A stretch of 20,000 nt of DNA from an uncultured virus (IMG/VR IMGVR_UViG_3300030060_006470). Taxonomy: Duplodnaviria > Heunggongvirae > Uroviricota > Caudoviricetes. The notes under the pieces are model-generated. The model searched no databases, was not told the origin of the DNA, and saw nothing but the letters and a program-made list of their open reading frames with translations. The stretch lies in IMG/VR virus record IMGVR_UViG_3300030060_006470; one strand, 5' to 3'. How positions within the stretch are numbered: the stretch's first letter is position 1; every line of letters begins with the position of its first letter. The translations under genes were made by a program, and so were the position numbers. Shown here one piece after another: positions 715 through 20,000 of this stretch.

Positions 715-766
715 TTATAACGGTATAAGTAAATACCGTTTTAATGGAATTTAATTAATGTTATAC
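715..766. other. attC-like recombination site S1
   Basis: TAAC(718)...GTTA(760) with inner stem taaataccgtt/aatggaattta; left spacer 2 nt longer than right. Confidence 0.6.
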
Positions 767-976: not shown

Positions 977-1069
977 TTATAACGTTGAGTATAAATGCCG
1001 TTGCGATATACGGCACTAAATTAAAAAGATATGAGTAAAGAAAGCAATGGAATTTATACAGTGTTACCT
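977..1069. other. attC-like recombination site S2
   Basis: TAAC(980)-N5-gtataaatgccgttgc...gcaatggaatttatac-N3-GTTA(1063); 14 of 16 stem positions Watson-Crick. Confidence 0.65.
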
Positions 1070-1237
1070 ACCGTTTATCCTTTGATTGATAATAAACGAT
1101 GGTACGCTGAGAATGGAACAGTTTATAATGAAGCGGATGAAGACTTTAGAATCTTAATGGTTTGCGGAGAAAATAGTGAAATGAACTTACCTAATGATGT
1201 AGCAGAAAAAATAGCTGAATATCTAAATGGTAGGTAA
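1031..1237 (+). CDS. Hypothetical protein (68 aa), cassette-borne
   Basis: ATG lies in the loop of S2; the stop codon is the TAA of the terminal TAAC. Confidence 0.7.
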   Translation: MSKESNGIYTVLPTVYPLIDNKRWYAENGTVYNEADEDFRILMVCGENSEMNLPNDVAEKIAEYLNGR

Positions 1238-1292
1238 CAACTATGTAATGACACCTTTGCAGAGTCCATATAAACTGTAAATCAATTAATTA
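1235..1292 (+). repeat. attI-like array-end site with IHF-consensus box, copy 1
   Basis: 35 of 42 nt identical to the reverse complement of 18304-18345; AATCAA-TTAA-TTA at 1280-1292. Confidence 0.6.
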
Positions 1293-3480: not shown

Positions 3481-3700
3481 TAAATTAAAGGTAGTCCAAT
3501 CGGCTACCTTTTTTTATGACCAGGAATTAATTATAAGACCATTTTAAAGCCATTTAAGACACTATTATAATTAAATGGATATAGATTACCACTTAATTAA
3601 TAAACCACCTTAAAACCTATTAATTAATTAAATAAAAAAATATTACTTTTTATTTGCATATGTCAAATATTCTTATATATTTTATTATATAGGGAAATTG
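3481..3700 (+). repeat. ~220-bp intergenic repeat U1 (terminator, inverted-repeat module, TTTGCATATGTCAAA...TATAGGG core)
   Basis: Collinear with 4023-4242, 5880-6102 and 6659-6880; terminator at 3487-3515. Confidence 0.85.
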
Positions 3701-3745
3701 ACATTTAAAATTATCTTGACCAGGGAAAAATTTTTAAAAATAAAG

Positions 3746-4022: not shown

Positions 4023-4242
4023 CTAATTAAAGGATAGTTAATAGCTATCCTTTTTTTATGCTCAGTAATTAAATCTAAGGTTATTTTTAAGCCACCTATA
4101 AAACCTTTATAATTAAATGGACATAGATTATAGTATCATAACTGAACTTGCCTTAAAACAGCTTTAAATATTAATTTAAATAAATATTAATTATTATTTG
4201 CATATGTCAAAATTTTTTTTATATTTTATATATAGGGAAATT
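4023..4242 (+). repeat. Intergenic repeat U2
   Basis: Terminator 4029-4057, arms 4076-4091 and 4152-4166, core 4197-4241. Confidence 0.85.
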
Positions 4243-4250
4243 TCAGATAT

Positions 4251-4273
4251 AAAAAAAGGGAGCAACTGCCCCC
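4251..4273 (-). terminator. Intrinsic terminator
   Basis: Minus strand ggggcagttgctccc followed by T7, downstream of ORF 4300-4554. Confidence 0.6.
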
Positions 4274-4554: not shown

Positions 4555-4657
4555 AATGTTACTGTTTTAAAGTTAGATTACTAAGTTAATAAATTTATTT
4601 CATTCAACAAAATTTAATATACACATTTGTGTATATATGTGTGAGGGGAAAGAAGGA

Positions 4658-4828: not shown

Positions 4829-4939
4829 ATTATTACCGTTTTAAAGTTAGAATGTAAATATAGTAAATTAACATCATACCACCAAATTTATTTTACTGTC
4901 ACTTATTAACATTTAATTGTTAATAAAGAAATCTTCTAA

Positions 4940-4990
4940 TTTATTTTGATATGTCAAATATTCTTCTATATTTTTATTATATAGGGAAAT
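4940..4990 (+). repeat. Core-only copy U3 of the intergenic repeat
   Basis: ttttgatatgtcaaatattcttctatatttttattatatagggaaat. Confidence 0.75.
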
Positions 4991-5209
4991 GTAGTTTTTT
5001 ATTATTTAAAGGTCAAAAAAATAATTAATAAATAAGTAAAAATAAATGTTAAAAAATTAGGAAAATCCAAAAATCCACTGAAGCCCCTTTTTAGCCCTTT
5101 TAAGGCACTTTTACCCTTTTTAGGTATCAGTATATCACTTTTTAGAGAACTTAAAAAACCTCTGTAACTTACTGTAAATCAGTAACTTATAAATTAGTTT
5201 AAAAATAAA

Positions 5210-5879: not shown

Positions 5880-6102
5880 AAATTAAAGGGTAGTTTAAAA
5901 GCTACCCTTTTTTTATACCCTAACATTAAATCTAAGGCTATTTTTAAGCTATCTAATGAACTATAATATTTATATGGATATAGATTATATTATCATAATA
6001 AAAAATCGCTTAAAACAGCCTTAAATGATATTTTAATTAAATATTAAATAAAGTTTGCATATGTCAAATATTCTATTATATTTTAATATATAGGGGAAAT
6101 TT
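5880..6102 (+). repeat. Intergenic repeat U4
   Basis: Terminator 5885-5914, arms 5933-5949 and 6008-6023, core 6054-6100. Confidence 0.85.
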
Positions 6103-6122
6103 GAAATTAAATTAAATATTGT

Positions 6123-6658: not shown

Positions 6659-6880
6659 TAAATTTAAAGGTAGTCTAATAGGCTACCTTTTTTTATGTCT
6701 AATAATTAAATCTAAGACTATTTTTAAGCTATCTAATAGAATATAATACTTAAATGGATATAGATTACCACTTAATTAATAAAACACTCTTAAAACAGTC
6801 TTAAATGATATTTTAAATAAATATTAAATAAAGTTTGCATATGTCAAATATTCTGTTATATTTTATTATATAGGTAAAAT
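6659..6880 (+). repeat. Intergenic repeat U5
   Basis: Terminator 6666-6694, arms 6713-6728 and 6789-6803, core 6834-6880; an extra core variant follows at 6899-6945. Confidence 0.85.
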
Positions 6881-6960
6881 AAAAAAAATCACTTTTTATT
6901 TGGTAGTGTTAAATATTTTTCTATATTCTATTATATAGGGCAAATTAAATTAAATATTGT

Positions 6961-7004
6961 TTTGTATAAGTCAATTATTTTTTTATCTTTGTAGTCTAAC
7001 TTTT
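6961..7004 (+). promoter_or_regulatory. Consensus Bacteroidota promoter
   Basis: TTTG-N19-TATCTTTG-tagTCTAACtttt. Confidence 0.8.
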
Positions 7005-7377: not shown

Positions 7378-7490
7378 AAATTTAAAGGTAGTCTAATAGG
7401 CTACCTTTTTTTATGTCCAAAAAATAAATATTAAATATTATTTGCATATGTCAAATATTCTGTTATATTTTATTATATAGCAGAAATTGA
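7378..7490 (+). repeat. Intergenic repeat U6 (terminator and core, middle module missing)
   Basis: Terminator 7384-7412 identical to that of U5; core 7441-7488. Confidence 0.8.
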
Positions 7491-7577
7491 AATAAATAAT
7501 ATGTAGAATAGTTGCATCGTATTATAAGCCATTCTAAGAGCCTTTTATTTCTTAGATAGGTAAATATACCACTATGA

Positions 7578-7660
7578 CCCTACGGAGGGGGGAGGGGGTC
7601 TTATACCCCCCATAGACCCCCCCCTGTAAGCCCCCTTATAGTACCCCCCGTACCGTGTCG
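7578..7660. other. G/C homopolymer island (potential G-quadruplex or hairpin)
   Basis: G6 and G5 runs, then C6-N5-C8-N6-C5-N8-C6, in otherwise strongly AT-rich DNA. Confidence 0.7.
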
Positions 7661-7804: not shown

Positions 7805-8227
7805 ATGAAGTCACTTATAAAGAAGTTATTGAGGGAAGAATTGGTAAATAAATTAATCAGGTTAGAGATTGACGAGGTTCATAAACCTGGTGAATATACT
7901 CACGAAAATGTAAAGTTAGAAGACTTATATGTTTTAGAAAAAAATATGAATGAAGCTTGGAACATTAAGGGTGGTTCTAAAACTAAAGACCCCTTAGAGG
8001 TATTTCAAATGTTAGATAATAGTAAATTTTTACTTGACGGTCATCATAGGGTTTGTGATTATATAATTAAAAGTGGTATTATAGATAAAGAAGAAATTCT
8101 TAAATTAGAGATATATTCTAATATATTACAAACACCTATTAAAAATTCGATAGAAGCTTTAGGTGCAAAACTTTTTAATGGTTACATACCCTTTATTGAA
8201 TGGTTAAAAAAAATTAACATATATTAA
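7805..8227 (+). CDS. ParB/Srx-like N-terminal-domain protein with conserved leader
   Basis: DPLEV...LLDGHHRV motif; N-terminus MKSLIKKLLREEL. Confidence 0.7.
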   Translation: MKSLIKKLLREELVNKLIRLEIDEVHKPGEYTHENVKLEDLYVLEKNMNEAWNIKGGSKTKDPLEVFQMLDNSKFLLDGHHRVCDYIIKSGIIDKEEILKLEIYSNILQTPIKNSIEALGAKLFNGYIPFIEWLKKINIY

Positions 8228-8273
8228 GTCTCTTTTTAAAAAAATATTTTTTGGTAAATTTTTGGTTAATTTT

Positions 8274-9080
8274 TTAGGGGGTAGTAATATTTTCAATACT
8301 AGTAACTAATACTTTCTTAACGCTTATTTCGGTTTCTTTATCTGTGATATTTCCTGTTGTAATATCTTTAGGGTTAAATTTAAAAGTAATTAATACTTCT
8401 TCATCAGCTAATTCTGAATAGTAATCTAAAACATATTGTTTATTTAGTGATAGATATATACCGTTACCTGGCATGGTAAGGACTTTACCTACTTTAATGT
8501 CTAGATTTAGTCTGGCGTTTGCGCCAGATGATATTTTACCATTTATAAGTGGCATAACCTTGTAACCCGTTAAAGTTGTATTAGTTTGGTTTGTTGATTC
8601 GTCTAATGACATTAATATTCTGTCTTGTGATATATCAGCAACCTTATAAAACCCATATTTGTTTGCTAATATTTTGGCTAACTTTGGGTTTATAACATCT
8701 ACCTCCATTTTAAATTCATCACCATACATGTCTTTTCTAAAATTAAACTCGTCAATGGCAGCTTGAATTAGTTTGTGTGATAACCCCATATTTTGATACC
8801 CATAATCTATTGCTATATCAAATGAAAAGTTTTCATTATCATTGTTAATCCAAATAGCGCCAATAACTCTATTATTATTTGTATCTATTAGTAGTCCGTT
8901 AAGTTCTTTATCTCTAAGTATGGTAACCCCTCCGTCTTTAGCTATTTTTTCAGCTTCATCTGCAGCTTCATATTCATCAATATCAAACTCAGATAAATCA
9001 ACATCGTCATGATAAGATACTAATTCATATTTTTCATTTAGCAGTCCTTCTCTAAGCAATTTTTTGATTAATTGTTTCAT
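8274..9080 (-). CDS. GNAT acetyltransferase plus possible ART-like C-terminal domain, with leader
   Basis: VIGAIW...FDIAIDYGYQNMGLSHKLI matches GNAT motif A; C-terminal GYKVM...GIYLS...ETEISV; leader MKQLIKKLLREGLLNE. Confidence 0.7.
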   Translation of the reverse strand: MKQLIKKLLREGLLNEKYELVSYHDDVDLSEFDIDEYEAADEAEKIAKDGGVTILRDKELNGLLIDTNNNRVIGAIWINNDNENFSFDIAIDYGYQNMGLSHKLIQAAIDEFNFRKDMYGDEFKMEVDVINPKLAKILANKYGFYKVADISQDRILMSLDESTNQTNTTLTGYKVMPLINGKISSGANARLNLDIKVGKVLTMPGNGIYLSLNKQYVLDYYSELADEEVLITFKFNPKDITTGNITDKETEISVKKVLVTSIENITTP

Positions 9081-9093
9081 GTATTAATTGTTT

Positions 9094-9663
9094 TTATTTC
9101 CACAATGATTTATCAGTAGGTGTTATATTGTAAACATCATTACCAAATATAACGTTGGTTACTTTAAATAGGCTTTTATCAAACAAACAAACATCATTAT
9201 ATGGTTGATTCATAATTTTCATATCAGTGAACCAAGAATCGTAATTTGTATTTTGTTTAAGGTATGGTGCTAGGTCTGCAAAATGATTCAAATCAAGTTC
9301 ATAAATCATTTCTTCCATCTCATCCCATGTTGTTTTAAATGTATTTTTTGCGTATGATTCAGCTTCAACTAAAAAGAGTAGTCCTCCACCGCTCTTATCA
9401 GATTTAAGACCAGCAAATTCCCTACCTGTAGATATATCATCTGTAAACCAATAGAAACCATCTTGTACCCTAGATTGGATATATTTTTGGAAAAAGTTAT
9501 TAATCTCAACCTTATCTGATGATAAGTTGTTCTTACTTAAAAAATCTTCCAATTTCCATATACCTGGTATAACGCCCCCATGATATAGTTTTGAATTAAG
9601 CCCTTCTTTGGTTATTTCACCTAATAATGATTCTCTTAGCAATTTTTTGATTAAGTGTTTCAT
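9094..9663 (-). CDS. Divergent ADP-ribosyltransferase-like protein with leader
   Basis: LYHGG...FYWFTDD...EFA...YDS...VCLFD; leader MKHLIKKLLRESLLGE. Confidence 0.6.
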   Translation of the reverse strand: MKHLIKKLLRESLLGEITKEGLNSKLYHGGVIPGIWKLEDFLSKNNLSSDKVEINNFFQKYIQSRVQDGFYWFTDDISTGREFAGLKSDKSGGGLLFLVEAESYAKNTFKTTWDEMEEMIYELDLNHFADLAPYLKQNTNYDSWFTDMKIMNQPYNDVCLFDKSLFKVTNVIFGNDVYNITPTDKSLWK

Positions 9664-9680
9664 CTATATATAAATATAAG

Positions 9681-10550
9681 TTAAAGATATGGGTTTAATG
9701 GTAATTCCCTATCATCTGGGTTATATTTGATTAATTGTTTATTTATTATATTTAGTTTATTTGCTTTATATACACATACGATAGGATTACCCCAATTAGT
9801 TGTATAGACTCCATCAATACCTAACTTAAGGAAAAACATTGTTGCCTTTCTAAGGCTATTAAAATGTGCTGCAATATAAAAATATAATGCATTAAAATTA
9901 GTTTCTAAATCTTCAAGACGTAATTCATTATAATAATCGTCCACATTTGGTGCAATGTCACTCAAATATATTTCTTCTTTATAATCAATCGTATTAACGG
10001 TTTTTAAAAAGTTAAAAACTTCTTCTTCACCTTTTAAATTTTTAGCCACCTCTTTATTTGTTTTTTCATCCCAAATAACCCACGTATTTGGTTTATAACC
10101 GTCATCTATAGCCCATTGTGGTAGTTCATCACCAAACCTATCCCAAGTATATGATATGTTATTTTCACCAATATGTAGACTATCAAAATCAAAAGTATCT
10201 AAAAGGTTAGATTCAAAAAATTTATAAAAATTAGGTATTTTATTAACTTTTTCTTTAATATAATCTGGTATGTCTCCGTGAAAATTTATTAAGTTCATAT
10301 TGGGGGGCATTTCTAAAGTATAAAGGTAACCATCCTTACTATCCTTTAATGCATACCCTTTAGCTTGGTCAATTTCTGGGGTTATATATACACCGTAACC
10401 TTCTGTAGCCCACCCAGGCTCATCTGGTGAATCACCCCATTTTAATTTAGGATATGGACTTCCATGATAATATCTATCATTTTTTGGGTTAAATTCATTT
10501 TTCTCATCCAACAACCCTTCTCTAAGCAATTTTTTTATTAAGTGTTTCAT
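9681..10550 (-). CDS. ADP-ribosyltransferase-like (ART-PolyVal-type) protein with leader
   Basis: YYHGS...GYGVYIT...AKGYA...GYLY...GIDGV; leader MKHLIKKLLREGLLDE. Confidence 0.7.
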   Translation of the reverse strand: MKHLIKKLLREGLLDEKNEFNPKNDRYYHGSPYPKLKWGDSPDEPGWATEGYGVYITPEIDQAKGYALKDSKDGYLYTLEMPPNMNLINFHGDIPDYIKEKVNKIPNFYKFFESNLLDTFDFDSLHIGENNISYTWDRFGDELPQWAIDDGYKPNTWVIWDEKTNKEVAKNLKGEEEVFNFLKTVNTIDYKEEIYLSDIAPNVDDYYNELRLEDLETNFNALYFYIAAHFNSLRKATMFFLKLGIDGVYTTNWGNPIVCVYKANKLNIINKQLIKYNPDDRELPLNPYL

Positions 10551-10581
10551 CTGTATATAAGTTAAGGTTCATAACCTAGAT

Positions 10582-11913
10582 TTAAGTTTTTTCTATTCTT
10601 TTTTTATGGGCTGACATAATATCTTGGAGGATATGGTCATTATTTAAGCGTTTAATAAAATCTTTATCATTAATCATCAAATTGTACATCTTTTTTGGGT
10701 TAGGATGATATTTTAACAATTCATCTATAGCCCCTTTGTCCTTATATAATTTTTCTCTAAAATCTTTGTTTTTAAATATAGTATCCACAATTTCTTCTGG
10801 ATTTTTAAAGCTGTTAGAAAAGTAAGCCAATGCTGTGTTCATTTTAGATATAACACTATCATAGCTTAATAATAATTTAACTAAGTTATTTTTGTCATTA
10901 CCCTTCATATCTGGGACCTCTATAAAATATGCCATATCTTCACTATCAATTATACCATTTATTTCATCTTCTGTTAAGTTGTTGATAAATTTATCAAACT
11001 CATCACCAAATTGCCTTAATATTTGTGGGTTTTCTGAGGTTTTTAAAATATTTAACATTTCAGCCTTGTCAATTAAACTTGGTCTGTTCTTTAACAGGTA
11101 TTTAAAGTTTTCTTCAGAAAAATCACCTACACTAAAGTTTCCAATTGAATCATATGATTCGCTCGTTCTTAAATCGTGAACCATATTACTATCTACCAGT
11201 AACCAAAGGATATATTTATGATATTTTTCATTTGGTTTTTCGTTACTTTTACCTCTTATTTGTATAACATATTTTTCTGTTGGGTGCCAATCTATTGTAA
11301 CATGCTCCCTGTTGTTTTTACGTAAGTGTAATAAATACATGCCATCATCTTGGGCTTCCCCACAATGACCCATAGATTCTTTAGACTTTTCACAATAATT
11401 ACTTTCAGTTAAAGCCCAATAATAACCATCATTGAATTTGTGAATTACTTTAACATTATCATCAATACCTTTAATTTCACCACCTACTTCAAGTGACTGG
11501 TGCCATTTGTCTGACATTTTAATAGCTTCATCCCATGTATATTGTTTTAGGTTAACTGAAGGTGTGCTTGGAGCTTCGCTCCAGTCTGTAATATACTTAT
11601 ACGATGGTAAAAGAGAGTCTAGTACTTCCTTAAAACTTAATTTATTTATATTAATATTTGGTTTATTTGTTGTTGTGAAAAATTTGATTATTTTTTCAAG
11701 GTCACGTCTTTTTTCAATTAAAAAACGTTTAGGGTCCTCTGGGTAATTAACCTTAGCTTGATTAGCTATCCATATAGAGTATTTATCAGATATATCGTGC
11801 GAAATATCAGCAGCCTCTTGGTCTAGGCCAATTTTATTTATAATAACCTTCCTATTATCCTTTTCGGTTAACAGCAGTCCTTCTCTTAGCAATTTTTTAA
11901 TTAAATGTTTCAT
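10582..11913 (-). CDS. PcfJ-like domain protein with leader
   Basis: MGHCG...LLHLRK...HVTID...IQIRGKSN; paralog of 15424-16910. Confidence 0.7.
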   Translation of the reverse strand: MKHLIKKLLREGLLLTEKDNRKVIINKIGLDQEAADISHDISDKYSIWIANQAKVNYPEDPKRFLIEKRRDLEKIIKFFTTTNKPNININKLSFKEVLDSLLPSYKYITDWSEAPSTPSVNLKQYTWDEAIKMSDKWHQSLEVGGEIKGIDDNVKVIHKFNDGYYWALTESNYCEKSKESMGHCGEAQDDGMYLLHLRKNNREHVTIDWHPTEKYVIQIRGKSNEKPNEKYHKYILWLLVDSNMVHDLRTSESYDSIGNFSVGDFSEENFKYLLKNRPSLIDKAEMLNILKTSENPQILRQFGDEFDKFINNLTEDEINGIIDSEDMAYFIEVPDMKGNDKNNLVKLLLSYDSVISKMNTALAYFSNSFKNPEEIVDTIFKNKDFREKLYKDKGAIDELLKYHPNPKKMYNLMINDKDFIKRLNNDHILQDIMSAHKKRIEKT

Positions 11914-11924
11914 TATTTGTTTTT

Positions 11925-13682
11925 TTAGATTCCTTCCGCACCGAATATTTTCATCACTTTTTCAGGGTGCTTTGAAAAGCTTATTAGTCTTCGTTTACTT
12001 TTTTCGTCTACATTATCAATAAATTCTTTACCTATAACCCCTAATATGTTCATTATCTTTTCTGGTTCTTCGGATTTAGTCAGTAGAAAATAAAACCTAT
12101 CTTGATTTTCTTCACCTCCTCCACCTAAAGAAGTTACAAATTCTTTACCTACATCCCCTAGTAAGTTATACAACCTTTCAGGTATTTTTGATTTTATTAG
12201 TAGAGCACGTATAATGCTATAAGAATCTGAGTCTTTTAGATTAGAGACATATTCTTTAAACTTATCACCCAACATATTTGCCACCTTTTCAGGTTCTTTT
12301 GAGAGGTTTAATAATTCATTTACCGTCATCATGCCACTAATATCCAAAATTCTACCATCTACTCTTGTCATCTTTAAATCTAAATTAGATATAAAATCTT
12401 TATGGTTTAATAACATATTAATCACCTTTTCGGGTTCTTCTGAGGATGTTACTAACGTGGTCACACCTAAATCGTTTGAATTACTTATATACGCATTCCT
12501 TTCTTTTTCTGGTAATAAAGATAACTCACCATATGTCAATCCTTCATACTTTTGTAGTTTAATTCTAATAACCCTTAATTGTTGTTTTGTAGATAATAAA
12601 TTAGTTTGTTCTTTACCCTTTGCTAAAAAATAACCACTTTCAATTAATGAATCCAACACTTCTGGTCTAAGCGATTTAATATTTTCATTACTTATTTTTA
12701 TATCTTCGGCATATAAATCTCTAATAAAATCTTTAGCTTCTACTTGACTACCATTAATAATTAAACCCTTTATTTCCTGGTCAATATAACCCTGTAGATT
12801 ATCATCATCATACCCCTTTGCCCATTTTATTATGTCTTCGTATCTTTTCTCATCCTCACTAATTTCTTGATATGGAAAATATTCTTCCAAACCGTAAAGG
12901 TTTGGTATTTCATTTTCTATATATTCCCATGATTCGTTATCGTCTTGGTTACCTCCAGCTCTGTCACCTTCATTACTTCTATCAGCAATAGCGTAGCCAT
13001 CTGGGTAATGCATGATAACTAATTTATGCTCGTCACCTTCTACGTTTTTTTGTAATACAAAATAAGGGGTAGCTCTATATTTAACTCTATATGTATTATA
13101 GAAATTTTCTTCAGCCTCTGAAATACACCATGATTCGCCTTGCCCGTATCTAACACACTTCGCTTTTGTGTTTGTGTCAAGTATAATAATGTCATCGTCT
13201 TCATAAACAACATCATCATCTTTAGGGTTATATATATCATTATCTTGCTTAATCGAAGTATCTTTAATCCATTTATTATTATTCACCAAATCAACCAAAC
13301 TCTTTTCTATTTTATCATTCATAGTCTTATTAGTTGGAAAAGGTCTGGCCTCATCGCCAAGTGATTTAATGTTTTTAACATAAGCATCAAGAAACTTCTT
13401 GGCTAAATCTTTATTATCAATAAATGCTGTAGTTTTAATCATTTTATTGATAGTGCTGTCGTACCAAGATTTAAATAAAGTGTCTAACTGGTCTTTAGAT
13501 TTAATTTGTTGTATATTACCAAAACTATTCTTAAATAAACCAGCAATGGCTAATTTATTTAATGTATCATCTGAAGAATCACCAATCTTTTTGGTAACGC
13601 CATTAATTATTTTATCGTTATATAAACTATTTTCGGTTAATAACAGTCCTTCTCTAAGCAATTTTTTGATTAAGTGTTTCAT
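11925..13682 (-). CDS. 585-aa protein with WCI motif (PcfJ-related?), C-terminal helical repeats and leader
   Basis: CVRYGQGESWCIS...FYNTY...PYFVL; five S-x-x-P-E-K/R repeats; leader MKHLIKKLLREGLLLTE. Confidence 0.65.
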   Translation of the reverse strand: MKHLIKKLLREGLLLTENSLYNDKIINGVTKKIGDSSDDTLNKLAIAGLFKNSFGNIQQIKSKDQLDTLFKSWYDSTINKMIKTTAFIDNKDLAKKFLDAYVKNIKSLGDEARPFPTNKTMNDKIEKSLVDLVNNNKWIKDTSIKQDNDIYNPKDDDVVYEDDDIIILDTNTKAKCVRYGQGESWCISEAEENFYNTYRVKYRATPYFVLQKNVEGDEHKLVIMHYPDGYAIADRSNEGDRAGGNQDDNESWEYIENEIPNLYGLEEYFPYQEISEDEKRYEDIIKWAKGYDDDNLQGYIDQEIKGLIINGSQVEAKDFIRDLYAEDIKISNENIKSLRPEVLDSLIESGYFLAKGKEQTNLLSTKQQLRVIRIKLQKYEGLTYGELSLLPEKERNAYISNSNDLGVTTLVTSSEEPEKVINMLLNHKDFISNLDLKMTRVDGRILDISGMMTVNELLNLSKEPEKVANMLGDKFKEYVSNLKDSDSYSIIRALLIKSKIPERLYNLLGDVGKEFVTSLGGGGEENQDRFYFLLTKSEEPEKIMNILGVIGKEFIDNVDEKSKRRLISFSKHPEKVMKIFGAEGI

Positions 13683-13783: not shown

Positions 13784-15352
13784 TTATATTCTTTTCATTA
13801 ATTTTCTAACAATTCTTTCATGAAGTTCTTGTATATCATTTTTAAATGTATCGTTATAAATATCCTTAAGGTCGTTTGAGATGTCCTTTATCGAAGGCAC
13901 ATTAACCTTTATTATACCGCCTTCATTTTCTGATACATTTAAATCCCCAGACCTCTTTAAATTACCTTCAACATTAGTTATTAAGTGTTTTACGGAAGCA
14001 TTAACTAGTTTAGCGATATCGTTTATCTTTTTTTGAGCTTGATATTTATCAGATGATTGTGAACCAAAAAGTAAATTTCCGTTTACATCTTGCATACTAA
14101 AGGTTATACCAAAAGCTTCACAGAACTGCCAAGATGCCAGTTCACTTTGTTGGGTTTGTGATGCTGATGTTTTTATTTCTGGCGCTAATTGAGCAAACAT
14201 ACCACCTTTTTGTGTTAGGTAACCGTTTAGGATTTTACTAAGAATACTTTTAGCTAAGTCCTTTGTTAACCTGGCACTAGTGATATTACCTGAATCTTGT
14301 ACTGGAATACCAACACTTTCAGCGTATTCTTTAAGTCCATTATATATTTTACCTATACGTTCACTATCGCCAGATGTTTCTACATCATCACCTAAACCAC
14401 CAATAGACTTTAATCTTTCTTTAGCTGAACTCATTTTTTCTATTTCAGGGCCAATATTATCAGTTCTACCTTTCATTAATACAGTGTCAGAATAATCGTA
14501 GTTTGCAATCCACGTATAAGTACCCTTTTTATTATATGAATCTGGTCTGTTATTTTGTAAAGACCTTAATTTTTCTTTTTCTAGGGCTGTTAATTCACTC
14601 CTAGTCTTACCTAACCCGCTCAGGTAATCACTAGTGATATTTGCGTCCTCTGAATACCCAGCCATTTTAGTTAAAACGAATATCTTTTTAGCGTTAGGTT
14701 TGATTTTAAATCCCCATTCTTGCCATTTTCCTGGAGCGGCTACTATTGTTGCGTCTGGTTTTTGATTTCTTATAGCTAATGAGTTTTGCCCACTATGTTT
14801 ATACCCCTGACCTCTTTCTACAGCTGTCATTAACTTCATTTTCTCATGTAATTCATCACTAGATGCAAAAGAAAGTAATCGTTTTCTAAAGTTCTCTAAA
14901 TTATCAGTTATTTCTTTTTTTTCTTCTGGTGTTGCTTGATTAGGAACACCTTCGGTATGTTTTGAAAGACTTTCGATTAACTCTTGAAATACTAAATCAT
15001 ATTTATAGAATTCATTAACTTCATTAATTATCTGTTCAGCTGTACTATAGGCTTTGCTTGTATCGTATGAGCCATCACTTTCTGGTCTAATTGGAATATA
15101 CCATGCTCTAAATTTACTTTTAATAGTACGTGTTTTTTTATCTTTGTATTTTTTATAATCAGCTTTAAGTCCATATTTTTTCATTAGACCGCCCTTTTCA
15201 CCAGTAACTTCAGCTTTATTTTTTAAAAATTTATTTAGTTCTGAAGTGTTACCATATATGTATAGTCTTTTACTGTTACCAAATTTACTTTTTATTTCAT
15301 CAGTAATTCCAAACCCAAAATCATCTTTATTTTCAGTTATCAAAAATTTCAT
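13784..15352 (-). CDS. ArdC-like protein (ssDNA-binding ArdC-N domain, degenerate peptidase-like C-terminal region)
   Basis: YKHSGQNSLAIRNQKPDATIVAAPGKWQEWGFKIKPNAKKIFVL matches the ArdC-N pattern; no HExxH. Confidence 0.65.
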   Translation of the reverse strand: MKFLITENKDDFGFGITDEIKSKFGNSKRLYIYGNTSELNKFLKNKAEVTGEKGGLMKKYGLKADYKKYKDKKTRTIKSKFRAWYIPIRPESDGSYDTSKAYSTAEQIINEVNEFYKYDLVFQELIESLSKHTEGVPNQATPEEKKEITDNLENFRKRLLSFASSDELHEKMKLMTAVERGQGYKHSGQNSLAIRNQKPDATIVAAPGKWQEWGFKIKPNAKKIFVLTKMAGYSEDANITSDYLSGLGKTRSELTALEKEKLRSLQNNRPDSYNKKGTYTWIANYDYSDTVLMKGRTDNIGPEIEKMSSAKERLKSIGGLGDDVETSGDSERIGKIYNGLKEYAESVGIPVQDSGNITSARLTKDLAKSILSKILNGYLTQKGGMFAQLAPEIKTSASQTQQSELASWQFCEAFGITFSMQDVNGNLLFGSQSSDKYQAQKKINDIAKLVNASVKHLITNVEGNLKRSGDLNVSENEGGIIKVNVPSIKDISNDLKDIYNDTFKNDIQELHERIVRKLMKRI

Positions 15353-15367
15353 AATATCACTTTTTAA

Positions 15368-15407
15368 TATAAATATTATATTTTAATGTAAAAATTAAAT
15401 ATTTATA
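15368..15407. promoter_or_regulatory. Divergent pair of TATTTATA putative late promoters
   Basis: TATAAATA at 15368-15375 serves the minus-strand gene; TATTTATA at 15400-15407 serves the plus-strand gene. Confidence 0.6.
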
Positions 15408-15423
15408 TTTAAAATAACACTTT

Positions 15424-16910
15424 ATGGAAGTAAGCATAAAACAAATTATAAGGGAAGCCTTGCAATCTGAACAAGAAAGAATAGACAAAAAAATACTTGC
15501 TAAGCAAAAGATTGTTGATAAGCTTGGTGTTTCCGATGAAATTTCTGACTGGGCTTTTGAGTTAAATCCTAAACTAGCTTTTTGGGTTGTAAAAACACTT
15601 AAAGAAAAGCATAAGCAAGGTCTGGCCGTAACGATAAAGAAAGTTTAGATGAATACTACCAAACACTAACCAATGGTTATCAAGATTTCTTTGATTTGTT
15701 AAAAGAAACAAATAGGCCAGCTATTCAGCCAAAACAAAATAGTTACGATTCGGCTATAGATTTGGTTAACAAATACAGTCATATTAGACAATGGGTAGAA
15801 AACCCAGATTCAGACTACGTTGATTTAAAACGTTTTACATGGGACGAAGCACTTGCAACTGCGGAAAGGTGGCATGAGGGTCTTGTTGTAACTAAAGTTT
15901 ATGATATAAATAAAAAATCAGAAATAATTCCAGGTAGTAAAGCTATGGGTAATGGTTTTTATTGGGCGTTAACTAAAGATAGCGTTAGTAGGGATTCTGC
16001 AAATGCTATGGGTCACTGTGGTACGGCAAATAAGCGTGATATGTGGCTTTTACATTTGCGTAAAGAAGAAGAGGAGTTTATTACAGCTGACTGGCACCCA
16101 ACCGATAACTTCGTGATTCAATTTAAGGGTAAAGGTAATAAGAGACCTAAAAAAGATTATCATAAATATATAGAGTGGCTTTTAAAAAATTGGGACATTA
16201 AAAAATTAAGAACTACTGAGGGATATAAACCAGAGACTAATTTTCAATTAGGTGATTTAGAACCAGAAAAAGCTATTGAGATATACTATGGTAAACCAGG
16301 AATAGTGGATGATAAAATTTTGATTGATTCTGCCCCAGTTGAAAATAAAGGTAAGCTTGTAACTAATTTATTAAAGAATGAGTCGTTTTTATTAAGTTCG
16401 ATACCAAATAAATTTTTTGATTATTTAAATATGGTTAAGGGTGCGGATGTATTTTCATTGTTAGCTGTCATATTAAAAAGCCCAAAGTTCTTTAAAGACA
16501 TGAGCATTTATGGGGGATACTTAAAGGAAACGCTTACTAGAATGCTTGATGCGGTACCAAAGAAAGATAAGTTAATTGATGCCATTATAAATGTTGATGG
16601 TATGTTAGATATTATCGGAAAAGAAGAAGTTGATTTACTTAGGCTTAACTATAGTGACCAAGATAAGTTAAATGAGATATTTGATAATTATGAAAATGGA
16701 ATTATGGCTTATGTTGATGGTAAATTAGAAATGGTTGAGGATGATTGGGATGAGGATGAATATTATGATGATGAAGAGCCTGAAGATGAAGAACTTGAGT
16801 CAGAAACCGAAGAGGATGAAAAGGAGGGTGAAGAACAGTTGCCAGAATCACATAAGCGTAAATTAAGAATAATAAAGGAGCTTAGAAATAGATTTGGCAA
16901 TCTACTATAA
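15424..16910 (+). pseudogene. Frameshifted PcfJ-like gene (74-aa and 404-aa ORFs are one gene)
   Basis: Both parts align in order to the 443-aa paralog; the second frame is open from 15615, before the first frame stops at 15646-15648. Confidence 0.75.
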
Positions 16911-17396
16911 GTTAAATAGTTGTGCATGTACAGACTTGTCGACTGGTGTAAAATATAGTCTTATTTTCATATCATGAGGTGCACCTTTTTCATCGTCACC
17001 ATCTTGTTCAAAATATGGGTATAGGTATCTACCTATTTTATATTTACTATTATCATCAAATACAATAAAGAATGGTTCTTCAGTCTTTGCTGCACCTAGT
17101 TTTTCCCATGGTATTAATTTCCCATCTCTATATTGGTAAGAATATATTCCGAATTTATGATTACCCTCATATATAAAGCCATATCTATCTGAGTTTTTAT
17201 GGTGCAATAGGTTGCCTATTCCGAATATCTTTTGGACTCCTAGTGTTTGTACTTCACATGATTTATCCATTATTACACCCACCTGGAATGGTTTTTGGGT
17301 TTTGAAAAAGACTTTAAAGAACCAAAACCCAGAAAAGTTCATATTCTTTCTGATTTTATAAAGTCCGTTATTTTTTGTGAATAATTTATGTATCAT
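16905..17396 (-). CDS. Hypothetical protein (163 aa)
   Basis: ORF starting 4 nt after the gcvH stop. Confidence 0.8.
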   Translation of the reverse strand: MIHKLFTKNNGLYKIRKNMNFSGFWFFKVFFKTQKPFQVGVIMDKSCEVQTLGVQKIFGIGNLLHHKNSDRYGFIYEGNHKFGIYSYQYRDGKLIPWEKLGAAKTEEPFFIVFDDNSKYKIGRYLYPYFEQDGDDEKGAPHDMKIRLYFTPVDKSVHAQLFNL

Positions 17397-17400
17397 AATT

Positions 17401-17778
17401 TTATTCGGTTAAGTTTTTATATTCTTCTGTTGACATTAGGTTATTTAATTCTGATGTGTCTGACATTTTTATTTTAACAATCCATCCATCACCGTAGGGG
17501 TCGTTATTGATTAGTTCTGGGTCATCTTCCAGGTTTTCATTTACCTCGAATATTGTACCTGTGACTGGTTGAAATAGGTCTGAAACGGTTTTAACTGCTT
17601 CTATTGTTCCGAATACTTCATCAGCGTCAAGTTCTTCGTCTAGGGTTTCCACTTCAACGTATACTATATCACCTAGTGCTGATTGTGCGAAGTCTGTCAC
17701 TCCAACTGTTGCTATATCGCCATTAACTTGAACCCATTCGTGTTCATTTGTGTAGTATAGATTTTCTGGTGTTTTCAT
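17401..17778 (-). CDS. gcvH: Glycine cleavage system H protein (lipoyl carrier)
   Basis: YTNEHEW, VGVTDFAQSALGDIVYVE, IEAVKTVSD (lipoyl lysine), INNDPYGDGW. Confidence 0.97.
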   Translation of the reverse strand: MKTPENLYYTNEHEWVQVNGDIATVGVTDFAQSALGDIVYVEVETLDEELDADEVFGTIEAVKTVSDLFQPVTGTIFEVNENLEDDPELINNDPYGDGWIVKIKMSDTSELNNLMSTEEYKNLTE

Positions 17779-17791
17779 GTTATATAGTTTA

Positions 17792-18022
17792 TTATTTTCT
17801 ACAGTCTTTAAGTTCCAGTTTAGGTTTTATGTCTAATAATTTCTTTATACTCTTAGTTGATAGTTGTCCATATATCTCTTTAAGGTCCAGATAGTAGTGT
17901 GTTGGTTCTTTTAGAAATCCTTCACCCTTAAGTACACCTATTCGTCTATAAGTACCTACATCACTTAATATTAGGTCGCTTAATAATTTTTCTCTTTGTG
18001 ATTCAAATATTTCTTCTTCCAT
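17792..18022 (-). CDS. Hypothetical protein (76 aa)
   Basis: First gene after the promoter at 18040-18071. Confidence 0.75.
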   Translation of the reverse strand: MEEEIFESQREKLLSDLILSDVGTYRRIGVLKGEGFLKEPTHYYLDLKEIYGQLSTKSIKKLLDIKPKLELKDCRK

Positions 18023-18039
18023 CTTAATTTATTTTTTAT

Positions 18040-18071
18040 TAAATATAAGTAAAATATTCTTAACTACCAAA
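18040..18071 (-). promoter_or_regulatory. Bacteroidota-type promoter for the gcvH operon
   Basis: Minus strand TTTG-N20-TATATTTA. Confidence 0.6.
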
Positions 18072-18085
18072 ACTAATTAGGTTAA

Positions 18086-18310
18086 TTAGAATGGTAAATC
18101 TATTTGTTTAGGTTTAACTAGATGTTTTCTTAGTTTAGTTAATGAATAGAATTTACCTCTAATATTATATCCTATACAAGCATTCTTTAGTACTTGTTTT
18201 AGTTCTTTATTTCTTTTAGAATTTATACACTTTTTACATTTAGTAAAGACATACTCTGGAGCAAAATCTAATTCATAAACATAAGTGTAAGTTACTGATA
18301 CTGAGTTCAT
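18086..18310 (-). CDS. Basic hypothetical protein (74 aa)
   Basis: Starts inside the attI-like site and reads away from the array. Confidence 0.75.
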   Translation of the reverse strand: MNSVSVTYTYVYELDFAPEYVFTKCKKCINSKRNKELKQVLKNACIGYNIRGKFYSLTKLRKHLVKPKQIDLPF

Positions 18311-18345
18311 ATTGGTTCTGTAAAGGTGTCGTTACATGGTTGTTA
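18288..18345 (-). repeat. attI-like array-end site with IHF-consensus box, copy 2
   Basis: Inverted copy of 1235-1292; minus strand TATCAG-TAAC-TTA at the same 45-nt offset. Confidence 0.6.
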
Positions 18346-18378
18346 TAAGTAATGCTACGTTTCTACTTCGTATTGAGT

Positions 18379-18765
18379 TTATTTTTGTAATTTTACAAAA
18401 TCATTAAAAAACAAAATAACTGTTTCAATTATATTTTCATCAATTAAATCATTATATGAAAACTCTTTATATTCAATATGTTCTCGATTTAATTTTATTA
18501 AACTTAAATCAGTTATTTCACCAGAATAAACATTTAATTTTTTATCATAAAAATCATAGTTATTTATAAAATTAATGTTTTTTGGGATAAAACCAATTTC
18601 TTCTAATGATTCACGCTTTAAGCAATCTAAGTTTGATTCGTTATTATTTCTTAAACCACCGATTAATCCAAATTTGTTTTTAAAATATTTATTATATTTA
18701 GGGTTTCTTTTAAATAAAACCACTTTATTATTATATAATATCAATAATAGCGATATATTTTTCAT
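18379..18765 (-). CDS. Nudix hydrolase
   Basis: Complete Nudix box G-LRNNN-E-SNLDCLK-RESLEEIGF. Confidence 0.9.
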   Translation of the reverse strand: MKNISLLLILYNNKVVLFKRNPKYNKYFKNKFGLIGGLRNNNESNLDCLKRESLEEIGFIPKNINFINNYDFYDKKLNVYSGEITDLSLIKLNREHIEYKEFSYNDLIDENIIETVILFFNDFVKLQK

Positions 18766-19412
18766 TTCTTTATTTTATATGTATTAATTACATTAATTTT
18801 ATCACCACTGAATAAAACATAATTAGTACCTTTTGCGTGTGTTTTATCACCAACTTTTAAAAACTGACCAATAGGGTAAAAAATACCATCAAATCCAATT
18901 TCTGATAGTTTTTCGGAAGTTAATTTATCAGAACCGAAAATTATGGATAAATTTTCATATAGAAATTTACCATTTGGGTAATAATCAAGTGCTTCTTCAA
19001 TAGGTTTTTTTATTATTTCTACCTTATTTTTTACTAACATTTTTTTTATAGGTAATTCATTGATATTTATTTTTTTTAAATTATTAAGTAATTTACTTTT
19101 AGTATCAATATCAAGTTTACCGTACCAATCAAAAAGAGTTAAACTGTTAGTTTTAACAACATATACAATACCATCATCACCACCTAACATGTTGGCATAA
19201 AATTTTGCCACTCCTTCATTATCTGTAAAATATAAACCATAACCAAAGGATTGATTACCTTCACCACCACCAATATTTTTCGTAGAAAATTTAATAAACT
19301 CATGACTTGAACCATGATATAATACTAAATTGTTATTAATCTCTTCGTTGAGTAATCGTTGTTCATTCAAATGTTCACGTACAGTAGTTGCTATAAATTT
19401 TCTTAGTTCCAT
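18762..19412 (-). CDS. ADP-ribosyltransferase-like (ART-PolyVal-type) protein with variant leader
   Basis: LYHGS...GEGNQSFGYGLYFTD...AKFYA...GFDGI...NYVLF; leader MELRKFIATTVREHLNE; TATTTATA at 19432-19439. Confidence 0.75.
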   Translation of the reverse strand: MELRKFIATTVREHLNEQRLLNEEINNNLVLYHGSSHEFIKFSTKNIGGGEGNQSFGYGLYFTDNEGVAKFYANMLGGDDGIVYVVKTNSLTLFDWYGKLDIDTKSKLLNNLKKININELPIKKMLVKNKVEIIKKPIEEALDYYPNGKFLYENLSIIFGSDKLTSEKLSEIGFDGIFYPIGQFLKVGDKTHAKGTNYVLFSGDKINVINTYKIKK

Positions 19413-19486
19413 AATATTAAATTGTTTATTATATAAATATTAAAATTCTACCCTAAAATACTTTTTGTTTTTTCATAATAAACGTT

Positions 19487-19551
19487 TTATAACAAGGTTT
19501 ATACTCCATATTCCGCTACGCTCCATACGTAGCATACACTAATCGTTATAT
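19487..19551. other. attC-like site S3
   Basis: TAACAA(19490)...CGTTA(19544), inner stem gtttatact/agcatacac, spacers 3 and 5 nt. Confidence 0.6.
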
Positions 19552-19590
19552 TTAATGCGGTGGTAGCGACTTTCTTTATTGCAATAGTCC

Positions 19591-19662
19591 TCATGTTAAC
19601 CAAGACCTAATTTCAATTGCGTGGCACTCGCTCAATGTTGCAATCATTGTTTTACCTATCAT
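19591..19662 (-). CDS. Possible 23-aa cassette peptide
   Basis: MIGKTMIATLSECHAIEIRSWLT in the S3-S4 cassette; may be non-coding. Confidence 0.2.
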   Translation of the reverse strand: MIGKTMIATLSECHAIEIRSWLT

Positions 19663-19687
19663 ACCAACAAGTTTTTACCGCACTAAA

Positions 19688-19742
19688 ATATAACAATATA
19701 TATAAGCCATAGAAAAAACGGCTCATATAATAACCGTTATAA
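19688..19742. other. attC-like site S4
   Basis: TAACAA(19691)...CGTTA(19735), stem tatataagcca/cggctcatata. Confidence 0.65.
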
Positions 19743-19880
19743 AACATTATCACGTAAATAATCTTTTGCTAATTTCCATGCGTGTGGAGTAATATAACAA
19801 CTAAACCCTTTAATACATACACCATTTTTCCAAATAGATGCTCTAAACTTTTCATATTTTATTTCTATTTTATCTTCCAT
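19737..19880 (-). CDS. 47-aa cassette-borne protein, not in the ORF track
   Basis: MEDKIEIKYEKFRASIWKNGVCIKGFSCYITPHAWKLAKDYLRDNVL; fills the S4-S5 interval and stops inside the site core. Confidence 0.7.
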   Translation of the reverse strand: MEDKIEIKYEKFRASIWKNGVCIKGFSCYITPHAWKLAKDYLRDNVL

Positions 19881-19892
19881 TTTTAAAACGTT

Positions 19893-19953
19893 TTATAACA
19901 ATGTATATAATTAACTCCATTTCATTCCGCAAATCATATACGGAACGTTATAA
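19893..19953. other. attC-like site S5
   Basis: TAACAA(19896)...CGTTA(19946), stem gtatataatt/aatcatatac, spacers 3 and 5 nt. Confidence 0.65.
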
Positions 19954-20000
19954 GCCATTAAGTATTTGCCATAAACTAATTAAATCGTTTTTATTTAGCT

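Follow-up and report, generated by a model that had tools for sequence, protein, structure and literature searches.

Candidate orphan attC-type sites between small genes of a marine phage share a reversed gene handedness with other viral sites

It was not until 2023 that integron recombination sites (attC) were reported from phages, and then as a rarity: Qi et al. describe 17 integrase-less attC clusters in 10,705 genomes (PMC9892861). Two or more neighbouring attC sites with no integrase nearby are termed a CALIN (PMC9892861). Under the integrase IntI1, five of six tested virulent-phage sites recombined with attI1, and bottom strands were more active than top strands; attC1 and attC2 of Pseudoalteromonas phage H101 (PH101) recombined with the same partner and the same strand preference (PMC9892861). 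In integrons, exchange takes place on the bottom strand, where the 5′ core is cut between its A and its C; read on the other strand, this is G|TTRRRY (PMC9892861). The present analysis concerns a stretch of 20,000 nucleotides, here called the window, from an uncultured virus of the Caudoviricetes (IMG/VR record IMGVR_UViG_3300030060_006470), and in particular three short elements near its right end, S3, S4 and S5. We regard it as an even proposition that S3–S5 are orphan attC-type sites bounding small gene units in a marine phage, in a mirror-handed form that is mainly viral. Orphan attC clusters in phages are a kind already known from H101; what seems new is the mirror handedness of the viral sites, the stop codon within the core, and an apex class that spans bacteria and viruses.

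Each of the three sites is an imperfect hairpin within inverted TATAAC/GTTATA cores, and all three lie in the same orientation within 470 nt (Table 1). The R″ and R′ boxes that delimit an attC site have the consensus RYYYAAC and GTTRRRY, with invariant AAC and GTT. S3–S5 all carry (T/A)TATAAC and GTTATA(A/T), which fit the consensus at five to six of seven positions, and the invariant triplets are present in each. The original prediction had described three plus-strand TAACAA..CGTTA sites in this region, and they were found as described, at 19490–19548, 19691–19739 and 19896–19950. This pattern occurs five times in the window against 0.64 expected, and none of 200 shuffles reached five; the two remaining matches, at 13807–13856 and 17475–17506, fall within coding frames and were treated as chance. 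The left and right ends of the sites form direct-repeat families (D1–D4), with 18–27 nt shared at 78–92% identity. The 16-mer TTGTTATAAAACGTTT on the 3′ side of S3 recurs at 19886–19901, after S5, and the upstream parts of the homologues P0022 and P0024 translate from this motif. As a search word in IMG/VR the 16-mer was discarded: it gave at least 119 matches, which among those listed were single, scattered and without arrays, and are therefore read as chance. That the sites themselves are AT-rich intergenic TAAC..GTTA pairs with no common function is already disfavoured, and we hold it to be highly improbable. The scattered 16-mer matches would suit such a view, as would the two pattern matches in coding DNA and the overall frequency of the word TATAAC, which is not enriched in the window (40 against roughly 33 expected, a rough estimate). 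The shuffles speak against it, and so do three results set out below: a model made from unrelated bacterial sites places the three co-oriented sites in its top three ranks, the apex of S3 has a 10-mer in common with H101 sites, and mosaic junctions fall on cores.

In DNA folding, the gene-sense strand came out better than its complement in five of six sites of the present set, with one tie. For S3–S5 this is the minus strand, and its minimum-energy folds close the R box in S3 (−6.4 kcal/mol), S4 (−6.2 kcal/mol, z −3.9, against −3.9 kcal/mol for the opposite strand) and S5 (−6.8 against −4.8 kcal/mol). S4 has a 3/1 internal loop in its 13-pair stem. The phage sites tested by Qi et al. span −3.6 to −17.5 kcal/mol, and S3–S5 fall within that span. 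Folding both strands, which had been proposed as a way to place extrahelical bases, yielded this strand preference; the extrahelical bases themselves could not be placed with confidence. The predicted 2-nt spacer asymmetry is seen in the S4 fold (three against one unpaired base beside the R stem) and, by manual pairing only, in S5 (five against three); it is not seen in S3. In bacterial attC folds, by contrast, the unpaired spacers are roughly symmetric.

Hairpins between co-directional genes could also act at the RNA level, as weak terminators, processing sites or stabilisers of mRNA 3′ ends, perhaps with a promoter-like box, so that the likeness to attC would reflect a shared hairpin design. 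We consider this possible but doubtful. It would be in keeping with the position of the sites, directly past stop codons and 11–13 nt ahead of the next start, with the superior fold of the strand that has the mRNA sequence, and with the many other repeated promoter and terminator modules in the window. A terminator scan twice flagged S4, which like an intrinsic terminator places a hairpin right behind a stop codon; it flagged neither S3 nor S5. The GC-rich stem followed by a T run that marks an intrinsic terminator was not found here, S3 and S5 having neither, whereas the phage has clear terminators of that make at 3487, 4029, 5885, 6666, 7384 and 13759. Conserved cores and a conserved apex are not terminator traits. 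A sigma-70 scan of the whole window gave 128 sites against 125.6 expected and no consistent promoter, and no early-promoter consensus was identified in S3–S5. No enrichment of the AACGTT palindrome was seen.

The strands cloned by Qi et al., those of the aadA7 control and of the phage sites, read RYYYAAC-G/A ... TT-GTTRRRY (PMC9892861, Table S3). S3–S5 in gene sense read the same way. The forward primers are taken to represent bottom strands, since the reverse primer for aadA7 presumably extends into the 3′ conserved segment. S3 aligns with H101 attC1 and H101 site 3 over both cores and has the identical apical 10-mer, GAGCGTAGCG. A class pattern derived from S3 and H101 (ATAAC-N10-35-GAGCGTAGCG-N5-35-TTGTTAT) matched at least 123 loci in bacterial contigs, one genome per species, where about 55 would be expected by chance on a uniform-composition estimate. 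Shewanella, Simiduia, Chlorobium, Syntrophaceae, Desulfobacterales and Spirochaetaceae are among the taxa. The matched sequences are plainly attC hairpins that carry the motif at their apex, and S3 has its cores and apical 10-mer in common with more than 80 of these attC-like bacterial hairpins; 31 of them, once aligned, give a consensus of 14 pairs, eight with compensatory changes. Integron integrases scored above the family cut-off in three of five bacterial genomes tested, the one in Simiduia lying 15–22 kb from the sites, and intI fragments lie about 1–5 kb from a site in two further genomes. A literature search on the apex motif returned primer lists only.

A covariance model (R1) built from the 31 bacterial sites, and thus from a single class, was run over 258,683 nt. 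It found all four H101 sites (E 1e-8 to 1e-11), followed by S3 (28.7 bits, E 1e-4), a third site in Tetrasphaera phage TJE1, and then S4 and S5. With filters off, the four best matches within the window and its relative L120, a 9.6-kb metagenome contig, were S3 (E 1.2e-5), S4 (17.9 bits, E 0.015), S5 (16.6 bits, E 0.037) and a weak site at 715–766, all on the gene-sense strand. By sequence and structure, S3 is a strong candidate member of the attC family, and S4 and S5 are marginal ones. The predicted attC-like nature of the sites is borne out in that S3 clearly belongs to a widespread class, and the class is distinct, as had been proposed, in being common to H101, Polaribacter phage P12002L (attC1) and many IMG/VR contigs. 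Set against the CALIN definition, the window offers three sites within 470 nt and no recognised integrase, with S3 alone confident by R1. H101 is the nearest described parallel: its TATAAC and TTGTTATA cores are identical, its sites have a similar length (54–77 nt) and fold energy, and it too lacks a tyrosine recombinase match. It differs in its gammaproteobacterial host, in its R1 scores (43–53 bits against 17–29 for S3–S5) and in having no genes in common with the window, no H101 match having appeared in the searches made. The bacterial chromosomal sites of the GCGTAGC-apex class share the AAC/GTT cores of the R box, the bulged stem, the apical motif and the size, and their gene-sense TAAC often holds a stop codon; they have higher G+C and more stable stems, an integrase nearby in some genomes, and, as described below, the opposite handedness to their genes. 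The conservation of the AAC/GTT cores and the apex from phages to bacteria of many phyla is left unexplained by termination, as is the activity of IntI1 on H101 sites (PMC9892861).

R1 does not find the two TJE1 sites tested by Qi et al., and so covers part of attC diversity only. Its third TJE1 match, 1462–1519(−), scored 20.8 bits (E 0.02). A model made from eight phage sites of Qi et al. was dropped, the alignment having put the stems out of register. In H101 itself, the sites at 26529–26585 and 27931–27987 are identical except for their first two bases, which suggests that a unit was duplicated, or moved, in that phage not long ago.

The original prediction held that the open reading frames (ORFs) beside the sites are inverted relative to attC. 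Handedness was counted for pattern matches set in the bottom-like orientation, with the longest non-overlapping frames of at least 60 aa within 900 nt. Around the bacterial sites, the opposite strand held 71,064 nt of ORF and the same strand 16,464 nt, and the opposite strand held the larger share at 69 of 81 sites. Canonical cassettes are arranged like this, with the ORF on the attC top strand, as the prediction had taken as known, and with attC following the ORF when that strand is read. The viral set, 52 IMG/VR loci with 49 distinct sites including H101, gave the reverse: 42,576 nt of ORF shared the strand of the site, 17,940 nt lay opposite, and the same strand was favoured at 37 of the 49 sites (11 opposite, one tie; Fisher p 1.5e-12 against the bacterial sites). 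The TAA in the 5′ ATAAC core closed a frame of at least 50 codons at 33 of the 49 viral sites and at 10 of the 83 bacterial sites (p 8e-11). In H101, the annotated genes around all four sites are on the bottom-reading strand, so its handedness is that of the window; P12002L attC1 follows H101, and TJE1 is canonical. The genes beside S3–S5 lie on the bottom-like strand, the reverse of the canonical arrangement. Since the window follows the viral pattern, the claim of inverted ORFs is correct and not peculiar to this locus. No mention of reversed handedness, of the stop codon in the core or of the shared apex class was found in the available text of Qi et al. (PMC9892861) or in searches of the open-access literature. 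Should the sites work at the RNA level, the viral orientation bias could come from selection for the more stable transcript hairpin.

Between the sites the arrangement is regular. Every ORF from 16905 to 19880 is on the minus strand, opposite to the TAACA...CGTTA reading as had been predicted, and the order in gene sense is stop codon, TATAAC-G, hairpin, TT-GTTATA(AAACGTTT), 11–13 nt, ATG. The 47-aa ORF between S5 and S4 starts 13 nt past the GTTATAA of S5 and stops at a TAA (19739–19737) within the S4 core, where 51 open codons come to an end. This ORF has three homologue clusters, at 100, 96 and 87% identity; an alignment query of IMG/VR found no relatives. Another frame enters across the window edge and runs for 16 open codons to its stop in the S5 core. 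The unit between S4 and S3 has terminal inverted repeats (I15) that extend the cores, and no Rfam match. Of the self-complementary cassette ends in the original prediction, the pair 19736–19748 and 19887–19899 holds at 12 of 13 positions (I10). The other had been given as 19545–19560 against 19678–19694, a span that requires one indel; without a gap it is reduced to 19542–19553 against 19686–19697, at 11 of 12 positions (I15).

The ART-PolyVal (ART) protein encoded next to S3 had related loci at 37 places in metagenome contigs, with L120 the sole close relative, and none in IMG/VR. L120 is 98% identical to the window over the ART and Nudix genes, and this identity stops exactly after TTATAACA at 18341, at the edge of a TATAAC core. 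Beyond that point, L120 has about 1.65 kb with five small genes, several behind xATAAC-G hairpin sequences, before it rejoins the window inside a 74-aa gene. Marine metagenome runs contain DNA nearly identical to the window, and Logan contigs of four of these (X1–X4) gave 32 listed pieces on the window and 1071 further. Pieces stop at 18341 (X1, X2) and at 18347 (X3, X4), with unlike DNA beyond. Two further cores behave likewise: an X1 contig ends at 722, which makes the core at 717–722, within the weak site at 715–766, a break point, and an X1 contig starts at 977, at a core followed by TTGAGTATAAA as at L120 site 6971. At 1232, where a degenerate second copy of the unit after the 18341 core lies on the plus strand, homology starts directly after TAAC and the DNA upstream is unrelated. 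Three such sites (722, 977 and 18341/18347) account for 6 of the 64 ends of the listed pieces, all 6 on the edge of a core; other ends are at internal repeats. TATAAC cores are thus junctions in the lineage of the window. Upstream of its ART gene, L120 lacks S3–S5 and has a 297-aa gene instead. Cassette-level variation among relatives, which the prediction had made a condition of its claim, is therefore present as junctions at TATAAC cores; for S3–S5 themselves, the variation observed is that the whole block is present or absent.

Such junctions could also arise, if the sites were regulatory hairpins, by short-homology recombination at intergenic motifs, as has been proposed for the PeSLs (promoter-early stem-loops) of T4-type phages. 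PeSLs are composite terminator/promoter motifs at the borders of indels, short intergenic hairpin modules beside small orphan genes in variable regions, where the indels and replacements of close relatives begin and end (PMC4122927). To this extent they resemble the present sites. They differ in their conserved promoter and terminator and in the homologous recombination thought to act at them, whereas junctions in the window share about 6–8 nt and the sites are attC-like (PMC4122927 for the PeSLs). At 18341 the window and L120 share about 8 nt, too short for homologous exchange.

L120 also contains a hairpin of 137 nt with nearly complete pairing, at 7475–7611 (−23.9 kcal/mol, z −4.7), with AACTAAC-GG at one end and ATT-GTTGTAT at the other. 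It resembles an attC of Vibrio-repeat size, and R1 is silent on it.

We propose that the gene-sense strand would fold as an attC-type single-stranded DNA (ssDNA) hairpin, nucleated by the GCGTAGC apex, a motif known to be stable as a GNA-loop mini-hairpin, and would be the counterpart of the recombinogenic bottom strand of integron sites. The stop TAA of the upstream gene would then sit in the 5′ core directly at the exchange point, AA|C, and an exchange between two sites would move a hairpin, a short leader and a gene with no frame damaged. Core recombination could in this manner swap, insert and delete hairpin-plus-gene units among related phages. The enzyme would most likely be an integron integrase of the host, working on phage DNA in single-stranded form, and the folding strand might often be single, being the non-template strand and, more speculatively, the lagging-strand template for genes co-oriented with replication. 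We infer recombination at S3–S5 themselves, its enzyme and the fold in vivo; IntI-type recombination in particular is suggested by analogy with H101 attC1 and attC2, which are of the class of S3. A further step, which we offer tentatively and think rather unlikely, is that phages carry their own mirror-handed attC lineage, with the gene-sense strand recombinogenic and the TAA at AA|C. With the stop at that point, host integrases could cut and paste units between phages with frames unbroken, and the units would be far more mobile than the cassettes of bacterial arrays because the folding strand is the non-template strand.

A number of observations weigh against the proposal that S3–S5 are orphan attC-type sites. 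Some concern the likeness itself: the flanks of S3 between the R box and the apex pair poorly, the R1 scores of S4 and S5 come mainly from their R boxes, that of S3 is partly circular because the class pattern was derived from S3 and H101, R1 misses the site-like sequences of L120, and TATAAC has the ordinary frequency given above. The handedness count used naively called ORFs (longest frames of at least 60 aa) and sites that are not independent, 29 of the 49 viral ones falling into one single-linkage cluster at 80% identity; counted by cluster, the contrast is 7 of 13 against 4 of 46. Among the junctions, an L120 breakpoint at 18206 is within a coding frame, and the breakpoint beside S3–S5 (19472 in L120, 19447 in X2) is 16–40 nt away from the S3 core. 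Finally, no integrase, PF00589 domain or other tyrosine recombinase was found in 19 window ORFs searched with Pfam or 31 with PHROGs, nor in 17 L120 ORFs searched with Pfam, a scope of 20 kb plus 9.6 kb. Nor did PF00589 match anything in the complete H101 genome, and an integron integrase was found in none of five viral records, two of them rated 100% complete. The absence of a recombinase from all of these is also what hairpins with a purely regulatory role would lead one to expect.

With no integrase found, any recombination would use a host enzyme or an unrecognised one. A complete integron platform, with intI, attI and Pc beside an array, was not found in the 20 kb plus 9.6 kb scanned. No attI-like platform was seen to the left of S3, where the attI-like end of the original prediction would be; that ground is occupied by the ordinary phage gene for ART-PolyVal. 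In place of several mini-arrays, R1 picked up in the window, besides S3–S5, only the weak site at 715–766. Occurrences of TTGTTATA at 1307 and 1556 were rejected as attC-like sites, since they belong to a repeated promoter-like module (D13/D15; TTG..17 nt..TATATT). An enzyme of another sort that acts on ssDNA, such as an HUH/Y1 transposase (IS200/IS605 or REP-associated) or an unknown phage recombinase, could also move the units, which would then be small non-autonomous mobile elements. The units do adjoin a fixed word, TAAC, and open with a subterminal hairpin, their geometry is strand-specific, and the phage records examined have no integrase. Neither the window nor L120 showed an enzyme of this sort, the R-box and stem architecture and the compensatory changes are traits of integron sites, and H101 members of the class are active with IntI1 (PMC9892861). 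We judge this explanation improbable.

One attC class with a GCGTAGC apex is common to bacteria of many phyla and dozens of viral contigs, and the viral copies are reversed relative to the genes, with the stop codon in the core. Were the contrast upheld by curated models and proper gene calls, the phage form would be distinct from the integron form, and it would provide a means by which small orphan genes are reshuffled in the variable regions of phages and a handle on the origin of cassettes and attC sites and their traffic between phages and bacterial integrons. If phages do have a mirror-handed lineage of their own, its sites would be a possible source or sink of integron cassettes, and the unsolved origin of attC sites and cassettes would become directly testable.

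Table 1. Positions of the sites, units, genes and repeated modules discussed (window coordinates unless L120 is named)
Feature	Position	Strand	Details
S3, attC-like	19487..19551	-	minus strand: ATATAAC-G..GAGCGTAGCG..TT-GTTATAA, bottom-strand-like
S4, attC-like	19688..19742	-	R box TTATAAC/GTTATAT; stem 13 pairs; loop 9
S5, attC-like	19893..19953	-	TTATAAC-GTTCC-GTATAT..ATATAC-ATT-GTTATAA
Conserved extension TTGTTATAAAACGTTT	19480..19495	-	3′ side of S3; repeat D3, 92% over 24 nt
Cassette ORF, 47 aa, between S5 and S4	19737..19880	-	
ORF-less unit between S4 and S3	19552..19687	-	longest frame 23 codons
3′ end of frame entering from past the window edge	19948..20000	-	ends at S5 core TAA
Weak attC-like site	715..766	+	gene-sense; R1 13.5 bits, E 0.28, chiefly R box
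TATAAC core, mosaic junction downstream of Nudix gene	18342..18347	-	
TATAAC core then TTGAGTATAAA, as L120 site 6971	977..982	+	X1 contig starts at 977
Degenerate second copy of unit after 18341(-) core	1232..1290	+	three-way alignment A3
Glycine-cleavage H protein	17401-17778		E 3e-47
Nudix hydrolase	18379-18765		
ART-PolyVal protein	18762-19412		
Copies of ~100-nt module	3618-3718, 4162-4262, 4909-5009, 6019-6119, 6799-6964, 7406-7506		
Second promoter-like module	442-491, 1301-1350, 1550-1599, 18042-18070(-); L120 8760-8805		

We read the window as a piece of a large marine phage. Its G+C content is 22–34%, and it is crowded with small ORFs, the majority without a known family in the Pfam and PHROGs scans; one protein is a member of the phage family phrog_554. 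Against phage records, blastn with 15000–20000 and tblastn with a 522-aa protein gave no match, and tblastn with a 404-aa protein gave a sole match, at 30%, to a Salicola jumbo phage. A tRNA scan of the window found none, and Rfam at E up to 1 a single weak and irrelevant small RNA match. A Bacteroidota host is hinted at only by promoter-like TTTG..TAnnTTTG motifs; those at 1307 and 1556 presumably fit the Bacteroidota promoter TTTG-N19-21-TAnnTTTG. Metabolic, host-like genes occur in the lineage: glycine cleavage protein H in the window and a full acyl-CoA dehydrogenase at 2279–3574 of L120, its close relative.

Several proteins share an N-terminus. At least six consecutive proteins from 7805 to 13682 start with a near-identical MKHLIKKLLREGLL (DNA repeats D5/D8/D11), and the observation also takes in 15424–15648 and 18762–19412 of the window and 4895–5788 of L120. 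The ART protein and an L120 protein are headed by a related leader, MELRKFIATTVREHLNE and MKDLKKFIATTIREYLNE. The bodies behind the common N-terminus differ, being GNAT-like, PcfJ-like and ART-PolyVal, and the N-terminus resembles a signal for targeting or packaging, carried in common by separate domains of the polyvalent-protein type.

The intergenic DNA contains several repeat families of promoter- and terminator-like modules beside the GC-stem and T-run terminators. One module of about 100 nt, with TTTGCATATGTCAAATATTC and TATTATATAGGG boxes (D1, D6, D7, D12), is present in seven copies, usually behind a AAAGGTAGTC..GGCTACCTTTTTTT terminator. A search with the 19-mer of this intergenic repeat (class B) returned 22 loci, with no proteins in common with the window; one unrelated 152-kb IMG/VR contig has the word several times. 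A second promoter-like module, TTTAATTTG(G/T)TA..17-20 nt..TTATATTAG, stands directly upstream of small genes (D13/D15). The near-palindromic word ACACATTTGTGTATAT occurs at 2222–2244 and 4617–4640, both intergenic, and could be an operator; the region around the first copy, 2140–2280, has no ORF and no Rfam match. In a 443-nt intergenic region, runs of G and C at 7560–7650 (GGGGGGAGGGGG .. CCCCCC .. CCCCCCCC) interrupt DNA that otherwise has 28% G+C, possibly marking a genome end, a packaging site or an origin feature.

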